Both the position numbers and the translations under genes were made by a program. From Escherichia phage a20, in sequence record OQ067374.1: a DNA stretch of 64,000 bases, one strand, 5' to 3'. This document shows positions 1,596-11,048 of the stretch, one piece after another; position 1 is the stretch's first letter; the number at the start of each line of letters is the position of its first letter. The notes beneath the pieces were generated by a model, which did not search any database, was not told the DNA's origin, and was given only the letters and a program-made list of their open reading frames with translations.

Positions 1596-2495
1596 TTATT
1601 CCTCGATTACGACATCTTCATATTTAGGTATATTATACGGTGAAGAAATTAAAGCATTAAAGTAGATGAACTCACCAAGACCTGGATGAAATACTTCTTC
1701 AGGATTTTCGAAATATTGAATCTTCGGACGTCCTTTAAGAATTTGATAGTATTCAGTTTTAGTTGGTTTAAAAATTCGAATCAACGCTTCTTCAGGATAC
1801 TTATTTCTGTCGAAGCTATTATTTGGATCGGTTATATAAAGCGGTTGGCCTAATTGAATTGCACATTCAACCACTTGTTCAAAACGATAGCATGGGTCAC
1901 TAATTCGAAATGGATGAAAAATACCATCTAGATGAATAGGAGCCAAATCACCTACAAGACGCTGCATGATGGAAGGACGTATAACTTTCTGCGTTACGAT
2001 AATCTTATTACCATCTGCACCTGCGTTAACCAGCACTTCTTTTTGACGTTCATTCAACACAGTAGTTTGAAGTGAACGATTAACCGACAACATATCGGTT
2101 TTTAAGAATTCGTCAATATAAAAACGTGGTTTATTAGGGTCTGCAGTGATATTGAAATTGAATTCTACATCAAAAGCGCCGTCATATCCGGTGATATCTG
2201 TGATTAGAAAATCACAATCATAATAAGCAATTAATGAATCAACCACAAATTCATTTTCAGTCCAGAAATATTTACGAGTGTTATACGCGTTATCTTTATA
2301 CCATAATGGAACAAACTTAAATTCTGGGAAAAGACGTTCACATTCTTTAATATCAGATGCATTACGTGGATATGTAATCACATCACCTGGATTAGCACGG
2401 TGCAAATGAAGTTGGAAGTTGCCATCCTTAAGGATAGCATACTGCCCAGTTTCATAAGACCGCATACTCAAAATAGGTACGCGGAAAATAGCCAT
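1596..2495 (-). CDS. hypothetical protein at the beta-glucosyltransferase locus
   Basis: 299 aa, tightly packed between the P-loop kinase and the hydroxymethylase; no resemblance to T4 beta-gt or alpha-gt as I recall them; contains a DCD (DxD-like) tripeptide. Confidence 0.55.
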   Translation of the reverse strand: MAIFRVPILSMRSYETGQYAILKDGNFQLHLHRANPGDVITYPRNASDIKECERLFPEFKFVPLWYKDNAYNTRKYFWTENEFVVDSLIAYYDCDFLITDITGYDGAFDVEFNFNITADPNKPRFYIDEFLKTDMLSVNRSLQTTVLNERQKEVLVNAGADGNKIIVTQKVIRPSIMQRLVGDLAPIHLDGIFHPFRISDPCYRFEQVVECAIQLGQPLYITDPNNSFDRNKYPEEALIRIFKPTKTEYYQILKGRPKIQYFENPEEVFHPGLGEFIYFNALISSPYNIPKYEDVVIEE

Positions 2496-3211
2496 TAGTC
2501 AAGGAATCCTTTAACATAATCAAAATCACGTTCAAACACATGGGCACTTACCATGGTATGAGTATAATCACCAACTTCTACACCACATTCGTTAGCGATA
2601 TAATGAAGTAATTTTCCTTGGAGATAAAAATCCAACTGCATAACAACAGCACAGTTCTGAGAACGCATATGACAGTGGGTATAAAGCTTACCATCACGAA
2701 TATAATAAGTCACTGAGTCAGTACATGGATATTCAAGAGTTTCGTCCGAATCAAGCAAAGCCTGATCAGAACTTTCTAGAATTTGGAACACAACTCTTCG
2801 AGAGTTAGGCTTCTCTTTAAGTTCTTTTAGAAGAGCTGGTAATTGGGCCGCAATGCGAGGACCATAGAAAGTGTTGAAGTTCGCCGGCAAAACATCTGAT
2901 TTTGGTTTAGAAATAAATTTAGCGACATTAGGATATGCCTTAAACGCTTCTTCTGCGTTGGTACCACCAGAAATCATAAACTTCCAGAAGTCTTCGGCAT
3001 ATTCATAAGAGATGCGGTTAATACGTGGGTCAGTCATTTTGAATGATGATGGAGTGTCAACAACTACTGTCATAGACCCAATTTCATTACAACGTCCAAT
3101 ACGAGAATCAGTTACGAATTCCGGGTTTTCTAAAATTTCACGATTGACTGCTTTAAATGCGGTTTGAAAATCTGCGGCTTTGATATATTTCATTGTGTTA
3201 TGTTTTCCCAT
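2495..3211 (-). CDS. 42: deoxypyrimidylate hydroxymethylase (thymidylate synthase superfamily, gp42-like, divergent)
   Basis: 238 aa; SRRVVFQ ... YPCTDSVTYYIRDGKLYTHCHMRSQN resembles the catalytic-Cys region of T4 dCMP hydroxymethylase; syntenic with gene 42; GAGGT precedes the ATG. Confidence 0.65.
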   Translation of the reverse strand: MGKHNTMKYIKAADFQTAFKAVNREILENPEFVTDSRIGRCNEIGSMTVVVDTPSSFKMTDPRINRISYEYAEDFWKFMISGGTNAEEAFKAYPNVAKFISKPKSDVLPANFNTFYGPRIAAQLPALLKELKEKPNSRRVVFQILESSDQALLDSDETLEYPCTDSVTYYIRDGKLYTHCHMRSQNCAVVMQLDFYLQGKLLHYIANECGVEVGDYTHTMVSAHVFERDFDYVKGFLD

Positions 3212-3253: not shown

Positions 3254-3493
3254 TTATTTGAATTTCTTAGCGATGTTGATATAACGTAAAGCTTCAGCAT
3301 CGATACTTCCAAGAACACTATGAAGAAATGCATCAGCGTAGTATTCCAATTGAACAGGTTCTTTAATCACTTTAGCCGCTTTGGTTCCAAACAGGCCCAT
3401 AAGGGCCTTTTTAAGAATTTGTTCATTAGTGTTCAGTTTCATAGTCAAAATCTCTTCATTAAGTTGGTGGTTAAAAGTTTTTCTAGAAATCAT
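3254..3493 (-). CDS. hypothetical small protein
   Basis: 79 aa ORF in operon context; no motif recognised. Confidence 0.4.
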   Translation of the reverse strand: MISRKTFNHQLNEEILTMKLNTNEQILKKALMGLFGTKAAKVIKEPVQLEYYADAFLHSVLGSIDAEALRYINIAKKFK

Positions 3494-4650
3494 TCTGGGT
3501 ACCTCAAAGCGTCATCAGAGTTAGTTATATCAATAATAGATATAGAATTTTCTGATAACCCATTTTTAGATAACTGACGTTTATAATATCTTTCACAATA
3601 TGTACACGTCGTCCCGCAGATTTCATTAGCACAATCGAAATCTGGATGTCTGAACCACCTTTTTTCTAAAAAGCCATCTAACAAAGAGGTTTCAATATTT
3701 ACTGTATGTGAAAACTCAGTTTCGTTTTCAAGAGTGAAAATAGTCTCTAAAGGCTTCCACAGTTCTAACAAATTACCTTCAAACTTTTCAGAAGCGTATG
3801 CTTCAAGAACTTTCAAAATGTAGTCTGTGCTACCTGTACGTCCTGAAACTTTGAATTGAGTGATACCAATATCATTATAAAGTTTCAAATCTTGAGGACG
3901 AACAAAACGAGTTCTCAACCAGTTAAATGGGTCTGTATCACGAGCTTTAATGCAGTGTTGCATTGGATATCCGTTTAAGGATTTAGCATCATCAGCTGTA
4001 ACATCAGTACTATGGAAAATATAGCAAGAGTCACGATAGCTACAATGTGTTGTATACCCTTTACCAGCATTAGAACAGAACTCATTTACAAGAACTTCAA
4101 ATATTATATTGTTCTTATTGCAAAACTCTGCTGCACGCTTCAGGAAAGAAACTGAACGGTTCTTATGAATTCCACAGCAGACCTTTTTGATATTATATTG
4201 GTCATGCAAGTATTTGATTTGAGTTACAGCATCGACATGTAGAATTGTTGAAACTTCAATCTCAATGTCTTTATTGACTTCACGAACAATTTCCATAACA
4301 ACAGGGTTAGCGATAGTAATACGCCATACGCCTATTGACCAAAGATACTGAACATAATCCTGAATAGCTTTCTTCTTCCACTCAACTAGTTCTCTTTTTG
4401 AACCAGGATTTATCGTGTTGAGTGTATAGTTAAAGCAAATACCTAATTCGTTACAACGTTTAACGTAATCTTCTAACATCTTTTTGTCAACGTCAGGAAG
4501 CCTAAAATCAGGTCTGGCTGCTACAAAAGCCATTTCTCTTGTAGAGCCGTATACTTCGTTTATCAAGCTATTAGGATAAGTTTTATTGAGCTCTACGATT
4601 TTATCAAGAAGAGCTAAATCAAAATTCGTTCCAATTTTAAAAGTATTCAT
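3490..4650 (-). CDS. hypothetical protein with C-terminal CX4CX3CX2C cysteine cluster
   Basis: 386 aa; C-terminal CANEICGTTCTYC plus further scattered Cys; no family confidently assigned. Confidence 0.6.
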   Translation of the reverse strand: MNTFKIGTNFDLALLDKIVELNKTYPNSLINEVYGSTREMAFVAARPDFRLPDVDKKMLEDYVKRCNELGICFNYTLNTINPGSKRELVEWKKKAIQDYVQYLWSIGVWRITIANPVVMEIVREVNKDIEIEVSTILHVDAVTQIKYLHDQYNIKKVCCGIHKNRSVSFLKRAAEFCNKNNIIFEVLVNEFCSNAGKGYTTHCSYRDSCYIFHSTDVTADDAKSLNGYPMQHCIKARDTDPFNWLRTRFVRPQDLKLYNDIGITQFKVSGRTGSTDYILKVLEAYASEKFEGNLLELWKPLETIFTLENETEFSHTVNIETSLLDGFLEKRWFRHPDFDCANEICGTTCTYCERYYKRQLSKNGLSENSISIIDITNSDDALRYPE

Positions 4651-4707: not shown

Positions 4708-5097
4708 TTATAGATTCGGTTTATATGATTTAAATGTTTCGAATTCGCCTTTATTCATAAGAGCTTTGAATTCGTCAGGACGCATAGCTTTGTCGTCGAT
4801 AATCCAATCATATACTGGTTTATGTGTTAGCAAATTATGGTACTTCAAACCAATGTTTTCCAAGTTCTGAATCAGACTTGGGAGAATGTCAATTGCTATA
4901 CGTCCAGGACCTACTGACTTCATACCGCGAGCAGTGTAAAGCGTTATGGTATGCCCTGCATCATACAGAGCATTAATAGCAGTCACCATTTCGACGTCTG
5001 GTTTGAAGTTCACGTAATCACGATTGTTATTCCACTCTGTTATACAATCATCGACGTCCACGCAAAGATGTAATGGTTTCATAGCAATATCCTTCAA
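4708..5097 (-). CDS. HAD-superfamily phosphatase-like protein
   Basis: 129 aa; LCVDVDDCIT resembles HAD motif I (DxDx); start may be the second Met at 5082. Its 5' end overlaps the 3' end of the homing endonuclease gene. Confidence 0.5.
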   Translation of the reverse strand: MKDIAMKPLHLCVDVDDCITEWNNNRDYVNFKPDVEMVTAINALYDAGHTITLYTARGMKSVGPGRIAIDILPSLIQNLENIGLKYHNLLTHKPVYDWIIDDKAMRPDEFKALMNKGEFETFKSYKPNL

Positions 5098-5809
5098 TAG
5101 AATTTTTAATATTATCAGCTATACGCTTTCTAGGAATACCCGTTTTCTTTTCAGCTATCCTAAGAGATTCATAGTAATTTTCGTTTATTTTAACAAATTT
5201 TTGAGACTTGTGAGCATTTTTGCTTTCGTCCTGATATCGATAATTAAGATATTTAGGCGATTTTACTCTCTTTTGAATCGTGGCAGAAGATATACCCAAA
5301 TCTTTAGCCGCTTCCCGACAGGATTCATAATATTTGCCATCTACATTAATCTTTAGACCATGTAATGCAGGTTTACCATACCTCCTGTGCTTTTCTTTAC
5401 CCCTAGCTATAGATTCAGCTGACAAAGTTTTACCCCATCTTGGGTTTTTATCACCAACTAAACGTCCTTTATTTGCCTTAGAAATTTTATCCTTGGACCT
5501 TTGGGATAACCCGTCAGAACCGCCTTCGCCACCAGTTTTAAGATTGTAATAATTTGGGTCTTTAACTATGTCTAATGTTATTAGAGCCTTTTCAGCTATT
5601 TTTAATTCTTCTCTCGAGCTATGGTAGGAAATGATTTCTTTAAGAAAATTTTCCTTCCCGTATTTCCTTTCAGCCTTTTTATATAATTTACCAGAACCTT
5701 TATATAAATCTAAAGGCTCGGCTTCTTCAGCCGAGTGCATTCCTAAATAAACTTTACCGTTTATAAGATTAGTAGTTTTGTAGAGATAATGTATCAAATT
5801 CGTTCCCAT
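5048..5809 (-). CDS. GIY-YIG homing endonuclease (seg-like)
   Basis: 253 aa; N-terminal IHYLYKTTNLINGKVYLGMHS is a GIY-YIG module; basic C-terminal DNA-binding region. Confidence 0.8.
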   Translation of the reverse strand: MGTNLIHYLYKTTNLINGKVYLGMHSAEEAEPLDLYKGSGKLYKKAERKYGKENFLKEIISYHSSREELKIAEKALITLDIVKDPNYYNLKTGGEGGSDGLSQRSKDKISKANKGRLVGDKNPRWGKTLSAESIARGKEKHRRYGKPALHGLKINVDGKYYESCREAAKDLGISSATIQKRVKSPKYLNYRYQDESKNAHKSQKFVKINENYYESLRIAEKKTGIPRKRIADNIKNSIEGYCYETITSLRGRR

Positions 5810-7479
5810 TGATGAGTGATATCGCCACCGATTGGACGATAGGAAACACCAGTTTCTTTATCAGTTAGTACCCATTTACCAGGATTTTTTGTAATCAGAG
5901 TAGCCGTTACAGGTTCTGCTACGTCATAACTAATAGAGCCGTCTTGAAGTACACGGCCCATATTACGTAATTGCTTAGTCAGAAGTTCCATACCTTTATA
6001 ATATGCGGCTACCGCTTTAAGTGGATTATTCTTGAAATAACCACCTAATGCAATCCAGATAATTGCCACTGCCAAATGATGATACTCGTTAAACGAACTC
6101 ATCTTTCCATATTTGTAAACTAATGGATTGATGTTAATAGTCACATTACAAGTTGTTTCATCAATAGTAAACTGTCCCCAGGTCGGATTAGCATTGAATT
6201 CATCATAACCTGAAACAGCATAAAGCACTTTAGCTTCATCATACAATTTTGGCCCGTAAATCTTGGTTTCGCCAAAATATCCACGAGGGTCGATAAACTT
6301 AACTTCGCCGTTATCAGTAATCATAGTATTACTGAAGTTCGGGTCACCATGAATAACAGAGTACTGTCCCTGAGAACGGTTATGATAACGAATAAGATGT
6401 TCTAAAGCTTGTTTCAGCATTGGCTTCAGACGTCCAATCTTAGTGTAGTTCACATGTGTGATTTTACCAAATGAATCAATCAATGGTTGAATGCTTTCAC
6501 AACGATCAATAACTTTCGTATAGAATTCTTTAGTGAAATCACGACGAACAGTTTCAGGACTTACAAAATAAGTGTCTGTGCTGAATTTCAGTGCATCTAA
6601 AATTGTATCAACAATTTGTGGACGAGCAAGACTTGATTTGGATTTAATATATTCAAATGCCGGCTTACCTTTAATGCGTTCCATTTCAAAGTTATTTTCA
6701 TTAACAGAAACTAACTGAGGGACTGAATCTGATTTCACTTTCAAATACCACGAAATCTCATCTTTCTGAAGAGCTCGGCCCTGTTCGGTTAATGCGAATT
6801 TAGTTACAGTTTCTTCACCGATTTCAACTGCATTAAAACTACGATTAAGTTCACGAACTTCATGAGCTTTTTCAAGTTTAGGCATATCACCTAAATCAAT
6901 TAGATTCATAAGCTCTGATTTATTGAATGCGCCGCTGTAAAGGAATTCTACGAAATCACGTCCTTTGCAGTATTCATGAATTTCTTCATCAGTAGAACCC
7001 ATATAGAATTCCCAGTCTTTGAACTGATAAATTCCTACAACATTACCACCTGTTGAACCTACGTTAGTGATATTTTCACCGTCGAAATTATATCGACATT
7101 CGTCGCCCTTAACATAGATTGCGTTAACATTCCAAGACCATGAACCAAAATCGGGAATAATATCACACCAGTTAACAATTACATTATGGCCGTCTAAATC
7201 TTTGTGTAATTTAGCAAGAGCATAAGCAGATCCATACGCTTCATCAACTGTACGAATAGTCACATTGAACCCTTCTTGCTCACAATAAGCTCGAACAGTT
7301 TCAGCAAATTTTGAATGAACTACTACAATAATTTCATCTGCGCCTAGGTCAGAATAAATTGTATACAAATTGCTCAGAATAGTGTCTTGTTTATAGTTAA
7401 CAAGCACCTTAGGAATATGGTGAGTAATTGGATATAAACGAGTTGCCAGTCCAGCACCAAGAATAACAGCTTTTTTCAT
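5794..7479 (-). CDS. bifunctional sugar-1-phosphate nucleotidyltransferase / APH-like sugar kinase
   Basis: 561 aa; N-terminus MKKAVILGAGLATRLYPITHHIPKVLV is the classic G-x-G-T-R-x-x-P nucleotidyltransferase signature; C-terminal VIHGDPNFSNTMI ... FIDPRG is the HGD-x4-N catalytic loop of APH/choline-kinase-type kinases. Confidence 0.75.
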   Translation of the reverse strand: MKKAVILGAGLATRLYPITHHIPKVLVNYKQDTILSNLYTIYSDLGADEIIVVVHSKFAETVRAYCEQEGFNVTIRTVDEAYGSAYALAKLHKDLDGHNVIVNWCDIIPDFGSWSWNVNAIYVKGDECRYNFDGENITNVGSTGGNVVGIYQFKDWEFYMGSTDEEIHEYCKGRDFVEFLYSGAFNKSELMNLIDLGDMPKLEKAHEVRELNRSFNAVEIGEETVTKFALTEQGRALQKDEISWYLKVKSDSVPQLVSVNENNFEMERIKGKPAFEYIKSKSSLARPQIVDTILDALKFSTDTYFVSPETVRRDFTKEFYTKVIDRCESIQPLIDSFGKITHVNYTKIGRLKPMLKQALEHLIRYHNRSQGQYSVIHGDPNFSNTMITDNGEVKFIDPRGYFGETKIYGPKLYDEAKVLYAVSGYDEFNANPTWGQFTIDETTCNVTININPLVYKYGKMSSFNEYHHLAVAIIWIALGGYFKNNPLKAVAAYYKGMELLTKQLRNMGRVLQDGSISYDVAEPVTATLITKNPGKWVLTDKETGVSYRPIGGDITHQWERI

Positions 7480-7663: not shown

Positions 7664-8296
7664 TTATTCGCCTCGTAACATGGCACCTAGTGCACCACCA
7701 GGGTGGAACTTAAGGAAATCATTAGAGGTAAATCCACGTTCAGACGAAAGGTTGATAGCAAACGTATCGATAAGCGCTAACAACAATGTAGTGGACATAG
7801 TCGGAGCCAGAGAATTCTCATCAACCTCTACTGCGATGCCTGTACAGAAAGAGTAATCAAAAAGGGCTTCATTTTCTTGTGGAATGTCTGGGTTACAATG
7901 CAACAGAATCTGTTTGACGTTCGGACGAATCATTTTAAGATGCTTAGCCACGCCTATCATTTCTTCAGTTTTACCAGAACGACTAATATGAATCAACACA
8001 TCATTAGGCGCAATGAATCCTGCATCACCGTGAGAATAATGCCCAGTGTTCAAGTACATACTCGGGATACCTAGTGAAGCAAAAGTCTCGGAAGCTTTAG
8101 TTGCGATATTAGCATTCTTACCAACACCTGTAATAATTACTCGGCTTTCATAATTACTAAGTCCCGGGCGTCGAAGAGTTTCTAGAATAGCATTATAACG
8201 AGCAGGGTTTTGACTAATTACTTTGGCCATAGCGGCCAAAGAAGAAGCTTGTTTTATGATTGCGTCAATAGCGATAGTAATAGGAGTAGTTTTCAT
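7664..8296 (-). CDS. SIS-domain sugar-phosphate isomerase (KdsD/KpsF-type, arabinose-5-phosphate isomerase-like, no CBS domains)
   Basis: 210 aa; VIITGVGKNANIATKASETFASLGIPS...HGDAGFIAPNDVLIHISRSGKTEE and LAPTMSTT...FHPGGALG align closely with the SIS domain of E. coli KdsD as I recall it. Confidence 0.75.
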   Translation of the reverse strand: MKTTPITIAIDAIIKQASSLAAMAKVISQNPARYNAILETLRRPGLSNYESRVIITGVGKNANIATKASETFASLGIPSMYLNTGHYSHGDAGFIAPNDVLIHISRSGKTEEMIGVAKHLKMIRPNVKQILLHCNPDIPQENEALFDYSFCTGIAVEVDENSLAPTMSTTLLLALIDTFAINLSSERGFTSNDFLKFHPGGALGAMLRGE

Positions 8297-8336: not shown

Positions 8337-11048
8337 TCAAAAATCGAACATATCGAACAGAGATGCTTTCTTCTCGTAATCGAGTTTCGCTGCTGATGTG
8401 AATCCTTCAAGTGGTTTAATAAATGTCTTCTCAAGGAGAACAGTGTAGTCCATCCAATGAAGTACGTCGTCTTTAATTAAATCTGTGATTTCAGTGCCAG
8501 AAGGCCATGCGATACATTTATCACCGAATGGGTTTCCTTCACGTAAAGGCAGAACATATACTTTTTCACCTTCTACAACTTGCGGTGCATCGATATTACC
8601 TTTGATAGCCCGGTTATATGTCAGAATTCCACGAATATGGAACGGACATTTGGGACCAGGGAATCCACCTACGTCATATTTAGCAATGTTATTCGCAGAA
8701 GATACCGACGCGATGCTAATATAATTCAATTGGCGGAATTCTTTTTCAAACTCTTTAAAATATTCTTGTAATGATTCTTCACCTTCTTGAAGCATACGAC
8801 GAATACATTCTTTAAGAGCTTTCTGTACTGCTTTAGGAGTCGAAGATTTCTGTGTTTCGAGACCCATGATTTTAAGCTTAGGTTCAGCGTATCTGGTTCC
8901 TTCCATATCCCACACGTTTAATGCATAACGTTTCTTACCAGTCCAGAATCCACCAATACCTTTAGAACCGAGCGGAGGACCAGCGATAGCTTCTCGGTCC
9001 ATGAACATCAAATGTTGCTTATTATTCATGTATTCGCACATTTCACGGAAACCTCTATCAATAGCAGGTTCCATACGTTCACGAGCGAACTTATCTAAGA
9101 AGTCTACCCAATGGTTGGTATCACGGAATTTAGATTCACCAACCTTATCGATAATTTTATCAGCAGATACGTAAATAGAGTCTGTATCACCATATAGAAC
9201 GAAAGCTTCACCTTCTGTACCACAAACTTCATTCAGATATTCATTAACTTTACGTTCAATCCACTGTAAAGCCATTTGACCAAATGTTGTGATTGCAGTA
9301 GCATTACGCAAATCATAATAACGGAACCAAACGTTGCCAAGTGCACCATAAAGTGAGTTGATAAGCAATTTACGGTTAATCTGTGCAGTCATACCTGCAA
9401 CTTCAGTACGTTGAGCTCTAAACAACATTTCATTAAGAGATTTAGCAGACAACTTTTTAATCTTTTCTTTAATCTCATCACTGAAGTCGAAACGATAATC
9501 AACATCTAATGGTTCGTCAACAGAAAGATTAGGATTATGCAATGCCTCTTTAATTATTTCACCATTACGTTGAGCTGCAAGCATGTAACCTTTATGTTCT
9601 TTACGTTGATTAAAGACCTTAGTGATTTCAGTTGGAACTACACCATCACGGTCTTTATAATACATCATGCCGTTAGGAGAGCAACTGTACACATCTGAAG
9701 GACGTTCAGCGATTGCGTTAATATAATCATGCAGTGGAGCTACTTTAAACGTTCCTGCTATTGTTTCCGGGCTAATATTCACTTGGCGAATAATACTTGG
9801 ATACAGAGATGTAAGGTCGAAACTCATTACATATTTGTATCGATTTGGAATAGGTTCCTTAACAAAAGCGCCAGGATAAGGTTGAACCGGGTGAGAACGA
9901 CCTTGTGGAATCACCTTGTTCTGCTCTTTAAGGCTATTAAAAATAATAGCATCCCATGTTTTAATTGGACTGAACACAGATTGAATCTGAATTTTAGCAT
10001 AATAACCCATGTCCAAGCTCAAGTTAATGAACTGGCGTTTAGCATCAATTTGCAATACACGATATACGTCGATGATGTTATAGCTTATATATCGTTGATG
10101 ATTACTTTCGCGAAGTTTAGAAATAGGACCGTCATATTTCAGTTTACCAACGTTCAATTCAAATTCTGAAATGTAATCCAGAGAATACGACGGTTGATTG
10201 GTAAAAGAGAATTTTTTGTAAAGGTCAATGTAATCAAGAACAGAGATACCGAACAATGTAATGATTTCACGAGAACCATACATGTTTTCGATAACTTTAA
10301 CACGAGTTTTACGATGCGGTGATAAACGTTTCGCAGTAGATTCGCCAAAAATATTCTTGATTCGGTTATACACATATGGAATATCAAATGACTCAACGTT
10401 CCATCCAGTCAAAATGACAGGAGTTTTCTGTTGCCAGAAGTTGAGATATTCCATCAACAATTCTTTTTCGTTATCGAACGGCATATAAATGATTTTATCG
10501 ATAATTTCAGATGGAACTTCATCACCGCCTTGTTCTTGAAGCTTAGCAGCGATTTCAATAGACCATTCTTCTACATTACCATACGGAGAATTCAATAGAT
10601 CAAATACGTAGAACCTGTCGTCAATTGAGTCATAATGGGTGATAGCATCAATCGGATGTTTTGCTTGTGACGGCTCAGGGAACCCATCCGGAGATGTTAC
10701 TTCGATGTCGAAGTTAGCCACACGAATTTTTGTATGGTCGTATTTGATTTCATAGTTATAAGTGTCAGACAAATACGCCAATTTGAAATCGTCCATGCCA
10801 AGTGCTTCAAGTCCGATATCTTCCATGCGTTTAATCCATTGGGAGGCATCACGCATATTAGCGAACAACTTACGAGTACACGGTTTACCGTAGATATCGA
10901 AATATTTCGTAGCCTGACTTTCTGGACAATGAGCAAACAGTGATGGTTTATATTCTACTTCACGAGTACGTTCACGGCCATTAGAATCGATGTAACGTTC
11001 AAAAATTGAATCACCAATCTGTTCAACCGTTAAGTAAAATTCTTTCAT
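8337..11048 (-). CDS. 43: DNA polymerase (family B)
   Basis: 903 aa; exonuclease FDIE and polymerase YGDTDS motifs; reads as RB69 gp43 from memory. Confidence 0.97.
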   Translation of the reverse strand: MKEFYLTVEQIGDSIFERYIDSNGRERTREVEYKPSLFAHCPESQATKYFDIYGKPCTRKLFANMRDASQWIKRMEDIGLEALGMDDFKLAYLSDTYNYEIKYDHTKIRVANFDIEVTSPDGFPEPSQAKHPIDAITHYDSIDDRFYVFDLLNSPYGNVEEWSIEIAAKLQEQGGDEVPSEIIDKIIYMPFDNEKELLMEYLNFWQQKTPVILTGWNVESFDIPYVYNRIKNIFGESTAKRLSPHRKTRVKVIENMYGSREIITLFGISVLDYIDLYKKFSFTNQPSYSLDYISEFELNVGKLKYDGPISKLRESNHQRYISYNIIDVYRVLQIDAKRQFINLSLDMGYYAKIQIQSVFSPIKTWDAIIFNSLKEQNKVIPQGRSHPVQPYPGAFVKEPIPNRYKYVMSFDLTSLYPSIIRQVNISPETIAGTFKVAPLHDYINAIAERPSDVYSCSPNGMMYYKDRDGVVPTEITKVFNQRKEHKGYMLAAQRNGEIIKEALHNPNLSVDEPLDVDYRFDFSDEIKEKIKKLSAKSLNEMLFRAQRTEVAGMTAQINRKLLINSLYGALGNVWFRYYDLRNATAITTFGQMALQWIERKVNEYLNEVCGTEGEAFVLYGDTDSIYVSADKIIDKVGESKFRDTNHWVDFLDKFARERMEPAIDRGFREMCEYMNNKQHLMFMDREAIAGPPLGSKGIGGFWTGKKRYALNVWDMEGTRYAEPKLKIMGLETQKSSTPKAVQKALKECIRRMLQEGEESLQEYFKEFEKEFRQLNYISIASVSSANNIAKYDVGGFPGPKCPFHIRGILTYNRAIKGNIDAPQVVEGEKVYVLPLREGNPFGDKCIAWPSGTEITDLIKDDVLHWMDYTVLLEKTFIKPLEGFTSAAKLDYEKKASLFDMFDF

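Follow-up and report, generated by a model that had tools for sequence, protein, structure and literature searches.

The 64,000-nucleotide stretch of Escherichia phage a20 (sequence record OQ067374.1) that was analyzed in this study, referred to as the window, comes from a T4-like Mosigvirus very near RB69. Within it, a gene at positions 3490..4650 on the (-) strand begins with an ATG codon and encodes a protein of 386 amino acid residues (aa), the ortholog of RB69 ORF050c/gp50 and hereafter referred to as gp50. On the basis of its sequence, gp50 is a phage member of the U32 family. We consider it somewhat more probable than otherwise that gp50 functions as an O2-independent, prephenate-dependent cytosine-5 hydroxylase, the anaerobic counterpart of gp48, a thymidylate-synthase (TS) homolog encoded in the same cassette. 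The narrower claim, that gp50 acts in DNA modification as a U32 redox enzyme that uses prephenate, is held with greater confidence. From its U32 membership, its two conserved ligand sets and its genomic association with prephenate synthesis, DNA-precursor genes and hosts that live at low oxygen, all observed directly, we infer its metal content, use of prephenate, substrate and physiological role.

The DNA of RB69 contains arabinosylated 5-hydroxycytosine, not hydroxymethylcytosine, and RB69 gp48 is a flavin-associated synthase of 5-hydroxy-deoxycytidine monophosphate (5-hydroxy-dCMP) that incorporates oxygen from 18O2 (Lee et al. 2026, PMC13326640). Thus, the cassette makes a 5-hydroxypyrimidine via a route that requires O2. 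This is the sole known route to 5-hydroxy-dCMP in these phages, and their hosts live largely without O2. The gene for a member of a family required for O2-free formation of 5-hydroxypyrimidines in RNA lies beside the gp48 gene, at a distance of about 280 bp in the same cassette. The initial annotation of this gene placed it between a hydroxymethylase gene and the sugar-activation genes. The gene order, from the TS homolog to the sugar-activation genes, is as it described, but the supposed hydroxymethylase is a 5-hydroxy-dCMP synthase (PMC13326640).

The gene, its U32 database label and the chemistry of the family are already known. ORF050c or a peptidase is unmentioned in the main text of Thomas et al. 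2018, and the gp50 ortholog TH1_065 was modelled in the Thanatos paper, where no role is reported. Our literature search, whose coverage of directly relevant work was incomplete, found no paper that ties a phage U32 protein to prephenate-dependent 5-hydroxycytosine DNA. What appears to be new is the proposal of a phage clade for O2-independent hydroxylation of DNA pyrimidines, with a second cysteine motif as its signature and with a recurring phage-encoded supply of prephenate.

Family assignment and conserved cysteines

gp50 scored 42.2 bits with the Pfam profile PF01136 (Peptidase_U32), above the gathering cutoff of 22.4 (E=7e-11), over aa 94–286 (positions 3793..4371, (-) strand), which are part of a TIM-barrel-like core. 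Pfam thus clearly assigns a family to a protein for which the initial annotation could not name one with confidence. When gp50 was aligned by hhalign with the catalytic regions of RlhA, TrhP and UbiU of E. coli, the probability was 96% and the E value 4.9e-9 over 209 columns. In this alignment, "THC(203)SYRDSC(209)YIFHS" of gp50 fell on "GALC(169)VAYSGQC(176)YISHA", and C203 and C209 of gp50 correspond to C169 and C176 of RlhA. Two hallmarks of the family, the TIM-barrel-like U32 fold and the conserved cysteine pair of the U32 motif (CX6C; C169/C176 of RlhA and UbiU), were found in gp50, the latter as C203-X5-C209. A plain MAFFT alignment placed the cysteines elsewhere than hhalign did, and the profile alignment was preferred.

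gp50 is not orthologous to RlhA, TrhP or UbiU, to which it is about 18–19% identical. BLASTP searches of gp50 against RlhA and TrhP were not significant, with a best E value of 0.05 for RlhA. With RlhA orthologs, which are characterized by a length of about 650 aa, the standard CX6CX15CX3C motif, a long middle region, a C-terminal cysteine group and close similarity, gp50 has no more in common than the layout of two cysteine sets, and no NCBIfam RlhA-type model was matched. The score of gp50 with the NCBIfam UbiU model NF047963 was 18.5 bits, compared with an equivalog cutoff of 440, and a phmmer search with gp50 against PDB returned nothing meaningful. Mk0906, a U32 "peptidase" of 247 aa from Methanopyrus kandleri (PDB 5d88), was 11–14% identical to gp50; their alignment spanned 221 residues and did not cover the C-terminal tail of gp50.

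Among the characterized U32 proteins, RlhA (YdcP) is required for 5-hydroxycytidine-2501 of E. coli 23S rRNA, for which prephenate and Fe-S biogenesis are also needed (PMC5727448). Its cysteines are at positions 169, 176, 192 and 196 in the U32 motif and at 572, 580, 611 and 614 near the C-terminus; those of the U32 motif, including C169/C176, as well as the C-terminal C580 and C611, are essential (PMC5727448). UbiU and UbiV, which act in O2-independent ubiquinone synthesis, each carry one [4Fe-4S] cluster, and the ligands in UbiU include C169/C176 (PMC6747719). In the ubiquinone pathway, 18O tracing showed that prephenate is the oxygen donor (PMC10990095). TrhP (YegQ) serves the O2-independent route to 5-hydroxyuridine in tRNA and is backed by the O2-dependent TrhO (PMC6599085, PMC12783734). 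In the studies cited here, U32 proteins of established role are Fe-S proteins that serve O2-independent, prephenate-requiring hydroxylation of aromatic rings.

The initial annotation described a 386-aa protein with a C-terminal CX4CX3CX2C cluster and likened the cysteine spacing to that of metal or Fe-S sites. The former was confirmed, and the latter is supported. The translation ...HPDFDC(340)ANEIC(345)GTTC(349)TYC(352)ERYY contains exactly this motif, C340-X4-C345-X3-C349-X2-C352 (3595..3633, (-) strand; codons 3633–3595). All four cysteines were invariant in 121 of 121 sequences with identities of 46–87%. In a divergent set of 126 sequences, consisting of the query and 125 full-length representatives at 24–47% identity, they were kept in 118–120 sequences (94–95%). 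Loss of these cysteines among homologs, which had been named as a sign against a metal site, was therefore not what was found, and the conservation of the C-terminal motif is far beyond chance. When 1.84 billion representatives were searched exhaustively with a profile, 1646 relatives were identified at E<=1e-3, 436 of which were at E<=1e-30.

The C-terminal cluster is not the only cysteine feature; an equally conserved set in the middle of the protein, C192-X10-C203-X5-C209-X23-C233 (3952..4077, (-) strand), had been overlooked. The nine cysteines that were invariant in the same 121 sequences were C158, C192, C203, C209, C233, C340, C345, C349 and C352. Across the divergent set, C192, C203 and C233 were 100% conserved, while the position of C209 was occupied by Cys in 75 and by His in 50 of the 125 representatives, and C158 and C177 were not generally conserved. 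By this pattern, the gp50 clade has two sets of four ligands, the first located mid-protein and the second C-terminal. Given their invariance and the Cys/His swap at one position of the middle set, the cysteines are read as metal ligands. By this reading of the alignments, the middle set is the canonical metal site of U32, predicted to bind a [4Fe-4S] cluster. The C-terminal motif is an additional site, similar to that of RlhA, and is predicted to bind either a [4Fe-4S] cluster or Zn.

Similar to RlhA, gp50 has the U32 fold and motif, a proposed target at C5 of the cytosine ring and two four-cysteine sets, the second of which is C572/580/611/614 in RlhA and C340/345/349/352 in gp50. Different from gp50, which is a single-domain protein of 386 aa, RlhA has 653 aa, two U32-type regions and pre-50S rRNA as its substrate. 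The cysteine spacing of the two proteins also differs, and gp50, about 19% identical to RlhA, is encoded by a phage amid DNA-precursor genes. With TrhP, gp50 shares the U32 family and, as proposed, prephenate-dependent hydroxylation of a pyrimidine at C5; TrhP, however, has the standard CX6CX15CX3C motif, lacks a C-terminal four-cysteine motif and acts on U34 of tRNA. TrhP and TrhO are a U32 protein and an unrelated O2-dependent enzyme with the same product, and a similar pairing is proposed for gp50 and gp48, whose redundancy, unlike that of TrhP/TrhO, is putative. UbiU–UbiV contains two [4Fe-4S] clusters per functional unit with four conserved cysteines each, to which the predicted sites of gp50 are similar. 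UbiU–UbiV is a heterodimer acting on a lipid, whereas gp50 appears to hold both metal sites on one chain. Finally, the proposed product of gp50 is identical to that of gp48 and the HY126-type 5-hydroxy-dCMP synthase, which are unrelated to gp50 in fold and cofactor (flavin, with O2-derived oxygen); these synthases have been characterized experimentally, whereas the role of gp50 is predicted.

Chorismate mutase genes and the distribution of U32

Chorismate mutase (CM) produces prephenate, and CM genes adjoin U32 genes in three phage lineages that are unrelated to one another. A CM_2 chorismate mutase is encoded between the U32 and TS genes of Enterobacter phage Entb_45 and Serratia phage LC53 (Pfam, E=2e-10 and 2e-11, respectively); these proteins are 77–114 aa long. 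A tblastn search identified CM homologs in 51 isolate phage records, and among the matches listed they were beside the TS-homolog and/or U32 gene. The hosts of the CM-containing phages were Klebsiella, Serratia, Yersinia, Enterobacter, Edwardsiella, Erwinia, Pectobacterium, Shewanella, Providencia, Morganella, Kosakonia and, for phage EcS1, Escherichia. In the IMG/VR set, for which 47 loci were collected with the family alignment, CM was found in 13 of 15 T4-like loci. Two further groups are unrelated distant phages whose U32 identities were 40–55%. The loci of one (L036, L038, L039 and L040) contain a DAHP-synthase/CM fusion (Pfam CM_2 2e-24 and DAHP_synth_1 6e-24; also recognized by NCBIfam) upstream of U32 with one HAD gene between them. 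Those of the other (L042, L045, L047, L048, L050 and L056, on contigs of 194–294 kb) contain a stand-alone CM gene immediately downstream of U32, with a product of about 105 aa.

DAHP synthase was fused to CM in five metagenomic loci (the four above and L060) and occurred alone in L024. In L024 and L060, the DAHP synthase or fusion gene was directly adjacent to U32. A phage DAHP synthase would be an auxiliary gene of the shikimate pathway, and to our knowledge no such gene has been described from a phage.

U32 genes were found in 221 isolate phage records, and the host genera among the matches listed were all Enterobacterales or Shewanella, which are facultative anaerobes. An AfhE-like gene was found in 373 records, including 57 of Acinetobacter phages, in contrast to the U32 matches listed, which included none from Acinetobacter. 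Acinetobacter is a strict aerobe. The cassette of Acinetobacter phage DLP1 consists of SIS, AfhE, HAD, TS, glycosyltransferase and kinase genes without U32, and another Acinetobacter phage, DLP3, makes tri-arabinosylated 5-hydroxycytosine without a U32 gene (PMC13326640). When one genome per species was scanned for 185,579 species, U32 was found in 7 loci only, all of them in bins or isolates of gut anaerobes (Erysipelotrichales, Bacillota, Oscillospiraceae, Gastranaerophilaceae, Romboutsia (two) and Phocaeicola faecalis). CM was present in 4 of these 7 loci, whose bins were metagenome-assembled genomes (MAGs), and a TS homolog was near U32 in none of the 7.

The loci of T4-like phages and of distant phages differed in the TS homolog. 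Within 8–10 kb of U32, a hidden Markov model (HMM) of the TS homolog detected it in 15 of 15 T4-like loci vs. 1 of 42 distant loci (L026). The partner genes at the 42 distant loci included a gp46:47-like glycosyltransferase gene in at least 16, an AfhE-like gene in 19, a HAD gene in 18 and a SIS gene in 11, and a thymidylate-kinase-like gene also recurred. Some distant loci were minimal modules in which MazG/dUTPase-like, kinase, glycosyltransferase and U32 genes lay beside DnaE. Given that the same partners are kept and the TS homolog is nearly absent, U32 probably occupies the place of the TS homolog at the distant loci.

Several distant loci contained additional genes. A dCMP deaminase gene was beside or near U32 in L001 (a 466-kb JGI contig), L027, L031, L034, L035 and L059, suggesting that the substrate there might be dUMP/uracil instead of cytosine. 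In L002/L058 and in L063 (a scaffold of Phocaeicola faecalis), U32 was preceded, in this order, by genes for a GP88-like protein, a methyltransferase of 414–425 aa and a protein of 265–267 aa. In L002, U32 was followed by genes for NT5C, an NMN-transporter-like protein, a deoxynucleoside kinase, a radical SAM/SPASM protein, another U32 paralog and a nucleoside deoxyribosyltransferase-like protein. The context of these three loci may reflect hydroxylation followed by O-methylation, or nucleoside salvage. Moreover, the gp46:47-like glycosyltransferase was fused in some phages to the gp45-like thymidylate-kinase-like protein, as read in L043. Fusion-type open reading frames (ORFs) were 605–606 aa in L043, L033 and L053 and 550 aa in L049 of the same cluster. 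The fusion suggests that the "kinase" may work with the glycosyltransferase instead of as a free deoxynucleoside-monophosphate kinase.

Proposed reaction and alternative explanations

The most likely substrate of gp50 would be dCMP before replication; cytosine that has already entered DNA is a less likely one. A [4Fe-4S] cluster would be bound in the barrel by C192, C203, C209 and C233, and a second metal center, on the C-terminal CX4CX3CX2C tail, would relay the two electrons taken from the cytosine ring. Following the scheme proposed in PMC10990095, the ring would be oxidized by two electrons and would capture the hydroxyl from the decarboxylation of prephenate, which would be released as phenylpyruvate. 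The product would be 5-hydroxy-dCMP, and phage kinases and polymerase would bring 5-hydroxycytosine into DNA for arabinosylation. In a facultatively anaerobic host without oxygen, the phage would still replace all cytosine by arabinosyl-5-hydroxycytosine. The gp48/gp50 pair would mirror the TrhO/TrhP and UbiI,H,F/UbiU,V pairs of the host. The initial annotation had suggested a redox or transferase role in the modification pathway; the former is the best reading of the present results, and the latter is without support.

A more general proposal, which we regard as finely balanced and leaning slightly to the doubtful side, is that phages own a U32 clade that hydroxylates pyrimidine precursors of DNA with prephenate. 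Where the host is a facultative anaerobe, its members would serve as a backup of the O2-dependent synthase; in phages of strict gut anaerobes, they would be the sole hydroxylase. Some phages of the clade would supply the oxygen donor with their own CM or DAHP-synthase/CM.

An O2-independent hydroxylase, if confirmed, would explain full replacement of cytosine in the gut and would bear on phage therapy and on the evasion of restriction and CRISPR. Prephenate-dependent U32 chemistry would reach beyond RNA and quinones to DNA precursors and viruses. Given its small size, single chain and commercially available candidate substrate, gp50 might permit a first in vitro reconstitution of a U32 hydroxylase. 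The genes for phage CM and DAHP synthase would add a new type to the auxiliary metabolic genes. U32-only cassettes of anaerobe-linked phages are a search key for new DNA modifications, and a large unexamined set of glycosylated DNA hypermodifications based on 5-hydroxypyrimidines would be expected in phages of gut anaerobes.

Several observations weigh against hydroxylation of dCMP by gp50. First, Dhakaviruses such as JS98, which infects E. coli, possess the cassette and lack U32, which makes the correlation with oxygen imperfect. Second, an HMM search for CM in every frame of the 64-kb window found no chorismate mutase. Given that no CM was recognized in the a20 window or in other Mosigviruses, prephenate of the host would be needed, as for RlhA, TrhP and UbiU/V. 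Third, the spacing of the middle set, C192-X10-C203-X5-C209-X23-C233, differs from CX6CX15CX3/4C of the family; UbiU (CX6CX16CX38C) and UbiV (CXnCX12CX3C) likewise depart from the standard U32 spacing (PMC6747719). Fourth, by 2024 in vitro hydroxylation was unproven for every U32 protein (PMC10990095). Fifth, the substrates of RlhA and TrhP are polynucleotides, from which a nucleotide substrate is extrapolated. Sixth, the distant loci were viewed for 8–10 kb on each side of U32 and were not dereplicated, and the hosts of MAG bins are indirect. Finally, gp50 is labeled, without discussion, a "sugar or heterocycle reductase" in Table 1 of Lee et al. (PMC13326640).

One alternative concerns the C-terminal motif only and is compatible with hydroxylation by gp50. 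It is quite possible, if short of probable, that CX4CX3CX2C forms a structural Zn(Cys)4 knuckle that serves folding or the binding of nucleic acid or a partner, or that its last three cysteines are a radical-SAM-like CX3CX(aromatic)C. In an AlphaFold2 model, C340/C345 are predicted within a short stretch resembling a hairpin and C349/C352 where a helix begins, an arrangement like that of zinc knuckles. Compact four-cysteine loops can, however, bind [4Fe-4S] clusters, as in endonuclease III, and Zn and Fe-S sites are inseparable from sequence alone. For radical SAM, "CGTTCTYC" fits CxxxCx(aromatic)C, but homologs have Y, H or L at the aromatic position and gp50 had no match to PF04055 at E<=1. 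In addition, its CX3CX2C is in the C-terminal tail, outside the U32-profile region, and is preceded by a fourth cysteine.

It is unlikely, although worth consideration, that gp50 is a prephenate-dependent U32 hydroxylase of another substrate, such as cytosine in new DNA after replication, dUMP/uracil, or tRNA or rRNA of the host or phage. RNA polymers are the substrates of RlhA and TrhP, which favor a polymer, and dCMP deaminase genes that directly adjoin U32 in some distant loci, such as L001, would feed dUMP. However, a 5-hydroxycytosine derivative is the sole non-canonical base reported for RB69 (PMC13326640), and U32 genes were embedded among DNA-precursor and DNA-glycosylation genes in every lineage examined. 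The neighboring genes for thymidylate-kinase-like and dNTP-pyrophosphatase-like proteins also point to the nucleotide level and thus favor a nucleotide substrate.

Less likely still is an Fe-S reductase or electron-transfer helper that reduces a sugar or base intermediate, or re-reduces the flavin of gp48, and hydroxylates nothing itself. Apart from the label in Table 1 of PMC13326640 just mentioned, such a role is consistent with the two conserved metal sites, which suit electron transfer, and with the frequent co-occurrence of arabinose-activation genes, as shown by the AfhE-like genes at 19 of the 42 distant loci. The absence of the TS homolog from 41 of the 42 distant loci, however, argues against an obligate partnership with gp48, and U32 was also found in minimal modules without sugar-activation genes. 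Moreover, the cassette persists without U32 in Acinetobacter phages and Dhakaviruses, and the arabinosyl-5-hydroxycytosine of DLP3 is made without U32 (PMC13326640). A helper would also leave the repeated linkage to CM unexplained. Finally, we know of no U32 protein that is a sugar reductase.

A true collagenase-like (PrtC-type) peptidase is very improbable: it is suggested by database names only ("peptidase", "collagenase-like protease", "peptidase family U32 protein"), the U32 members with genetically established function in the cited studies all serve hydroxylation and not proteolysis, and eight conserved metal ligands in a context of nucleotide metabolism would make no sense in a peptidase.

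Gene neighborhood of gp50 in phage a20

The genes around gp50 in the window are also on the (-) strand. On one side are the genes for a gp45-like thymidylate-kinase-like protein (1046-1594), a gp46:47-like DNA arabinosyltransferase of 299 aa (1596-2495), the TS homolog (2495-3211; Pfam Thymidylat_synt), which is the ortholog of RB69 gp48, and a 79-aa ORF (3254-3493) corresponding to RB69 ORF049c. The gp45-like and gp46:47-like proteins are core partners of either type of hydroxylase. On the other side are genes for the supply of UDP-arabinose, which encode a HAD phosphatase (4708-5097), an AfhE-like NTP-transferase/kinase of 561 aa (5794-7479) and a SIS arabinose-5-P isomerase (7664-8296), with functions according to PMC13326640. 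The supply of UDP-arabinose is credited to AfhE and AfhF (PMC13326640). In the BASEL annotation, a role in UDP-arabinose synthesis is given to gp50. This role is unlikely, given that the same sugar modification is produced by phages that lack U32. The gene at 8337-11048 encodes a DNA polymerase of 903 aa. We take this polymerase to be the ortholog of RB69 gp43, consistent with an RB69-like Mosigvirus. The gp50 gene itself is 99.5% identical in DNA to RB69 ORF050c, and its protein shares 100% identity with those of several Escherichia phages.

The ATG codon of ORF049c overlaps the stop codon of the U32 gene (ATGA), which suggests translational coupling. ORF049c was conserved in Mosigviruses as well as in Yersinia and Pectobacterium phages and Serratia phage 92A1, and had no Pfam or NCBIfam match. 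It may assist the U32 enzyme as an accessory factor. The position of ORF049c adjoins the slot where other phages have CM. A diverged CM was considered and rejected, given that no CM profile was matched and that a real CM is encoded alongside ORF049c in the Yersinia, Pectobacterium and Serratia 92A1 phages. Scans for promoters and terminators in the window found sites that were no more numerous than in shuffled sequence.

The UDP-arabinose supply genes are interrupted by a gene for a GIY-YIG homing endonuclease of 253 aa (5048-5809, (-) strand). This Seg-like protein matched Pfam I-TevI_DNA-bd, NUMOD1/3 and SegE_GIY-YIG, and its gene overlaps the ends of the AfhE-like and HAD ORFs. In RB69, about 440 bp lie between the end of ORF050c (27,652) and the primer coordinates of ORF053c-052c (from 28,094), which is insufficient room for both a homing endonuclease gene and a HAD gene. 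In Serratia phage LC53, a gene for a "putative endonuclease" adjoins the U32 gene. The ORFs at 1596-2495 (299 aa) and 5794-7479 (561 aa) are intact in the window, while the GenBank record of RB69 splits both (ORF046/047 and ORF052/053, respectively) by sequencing errors; the intact ORFs are consistent with the corrections in PMC6024577 and PMC13326640.

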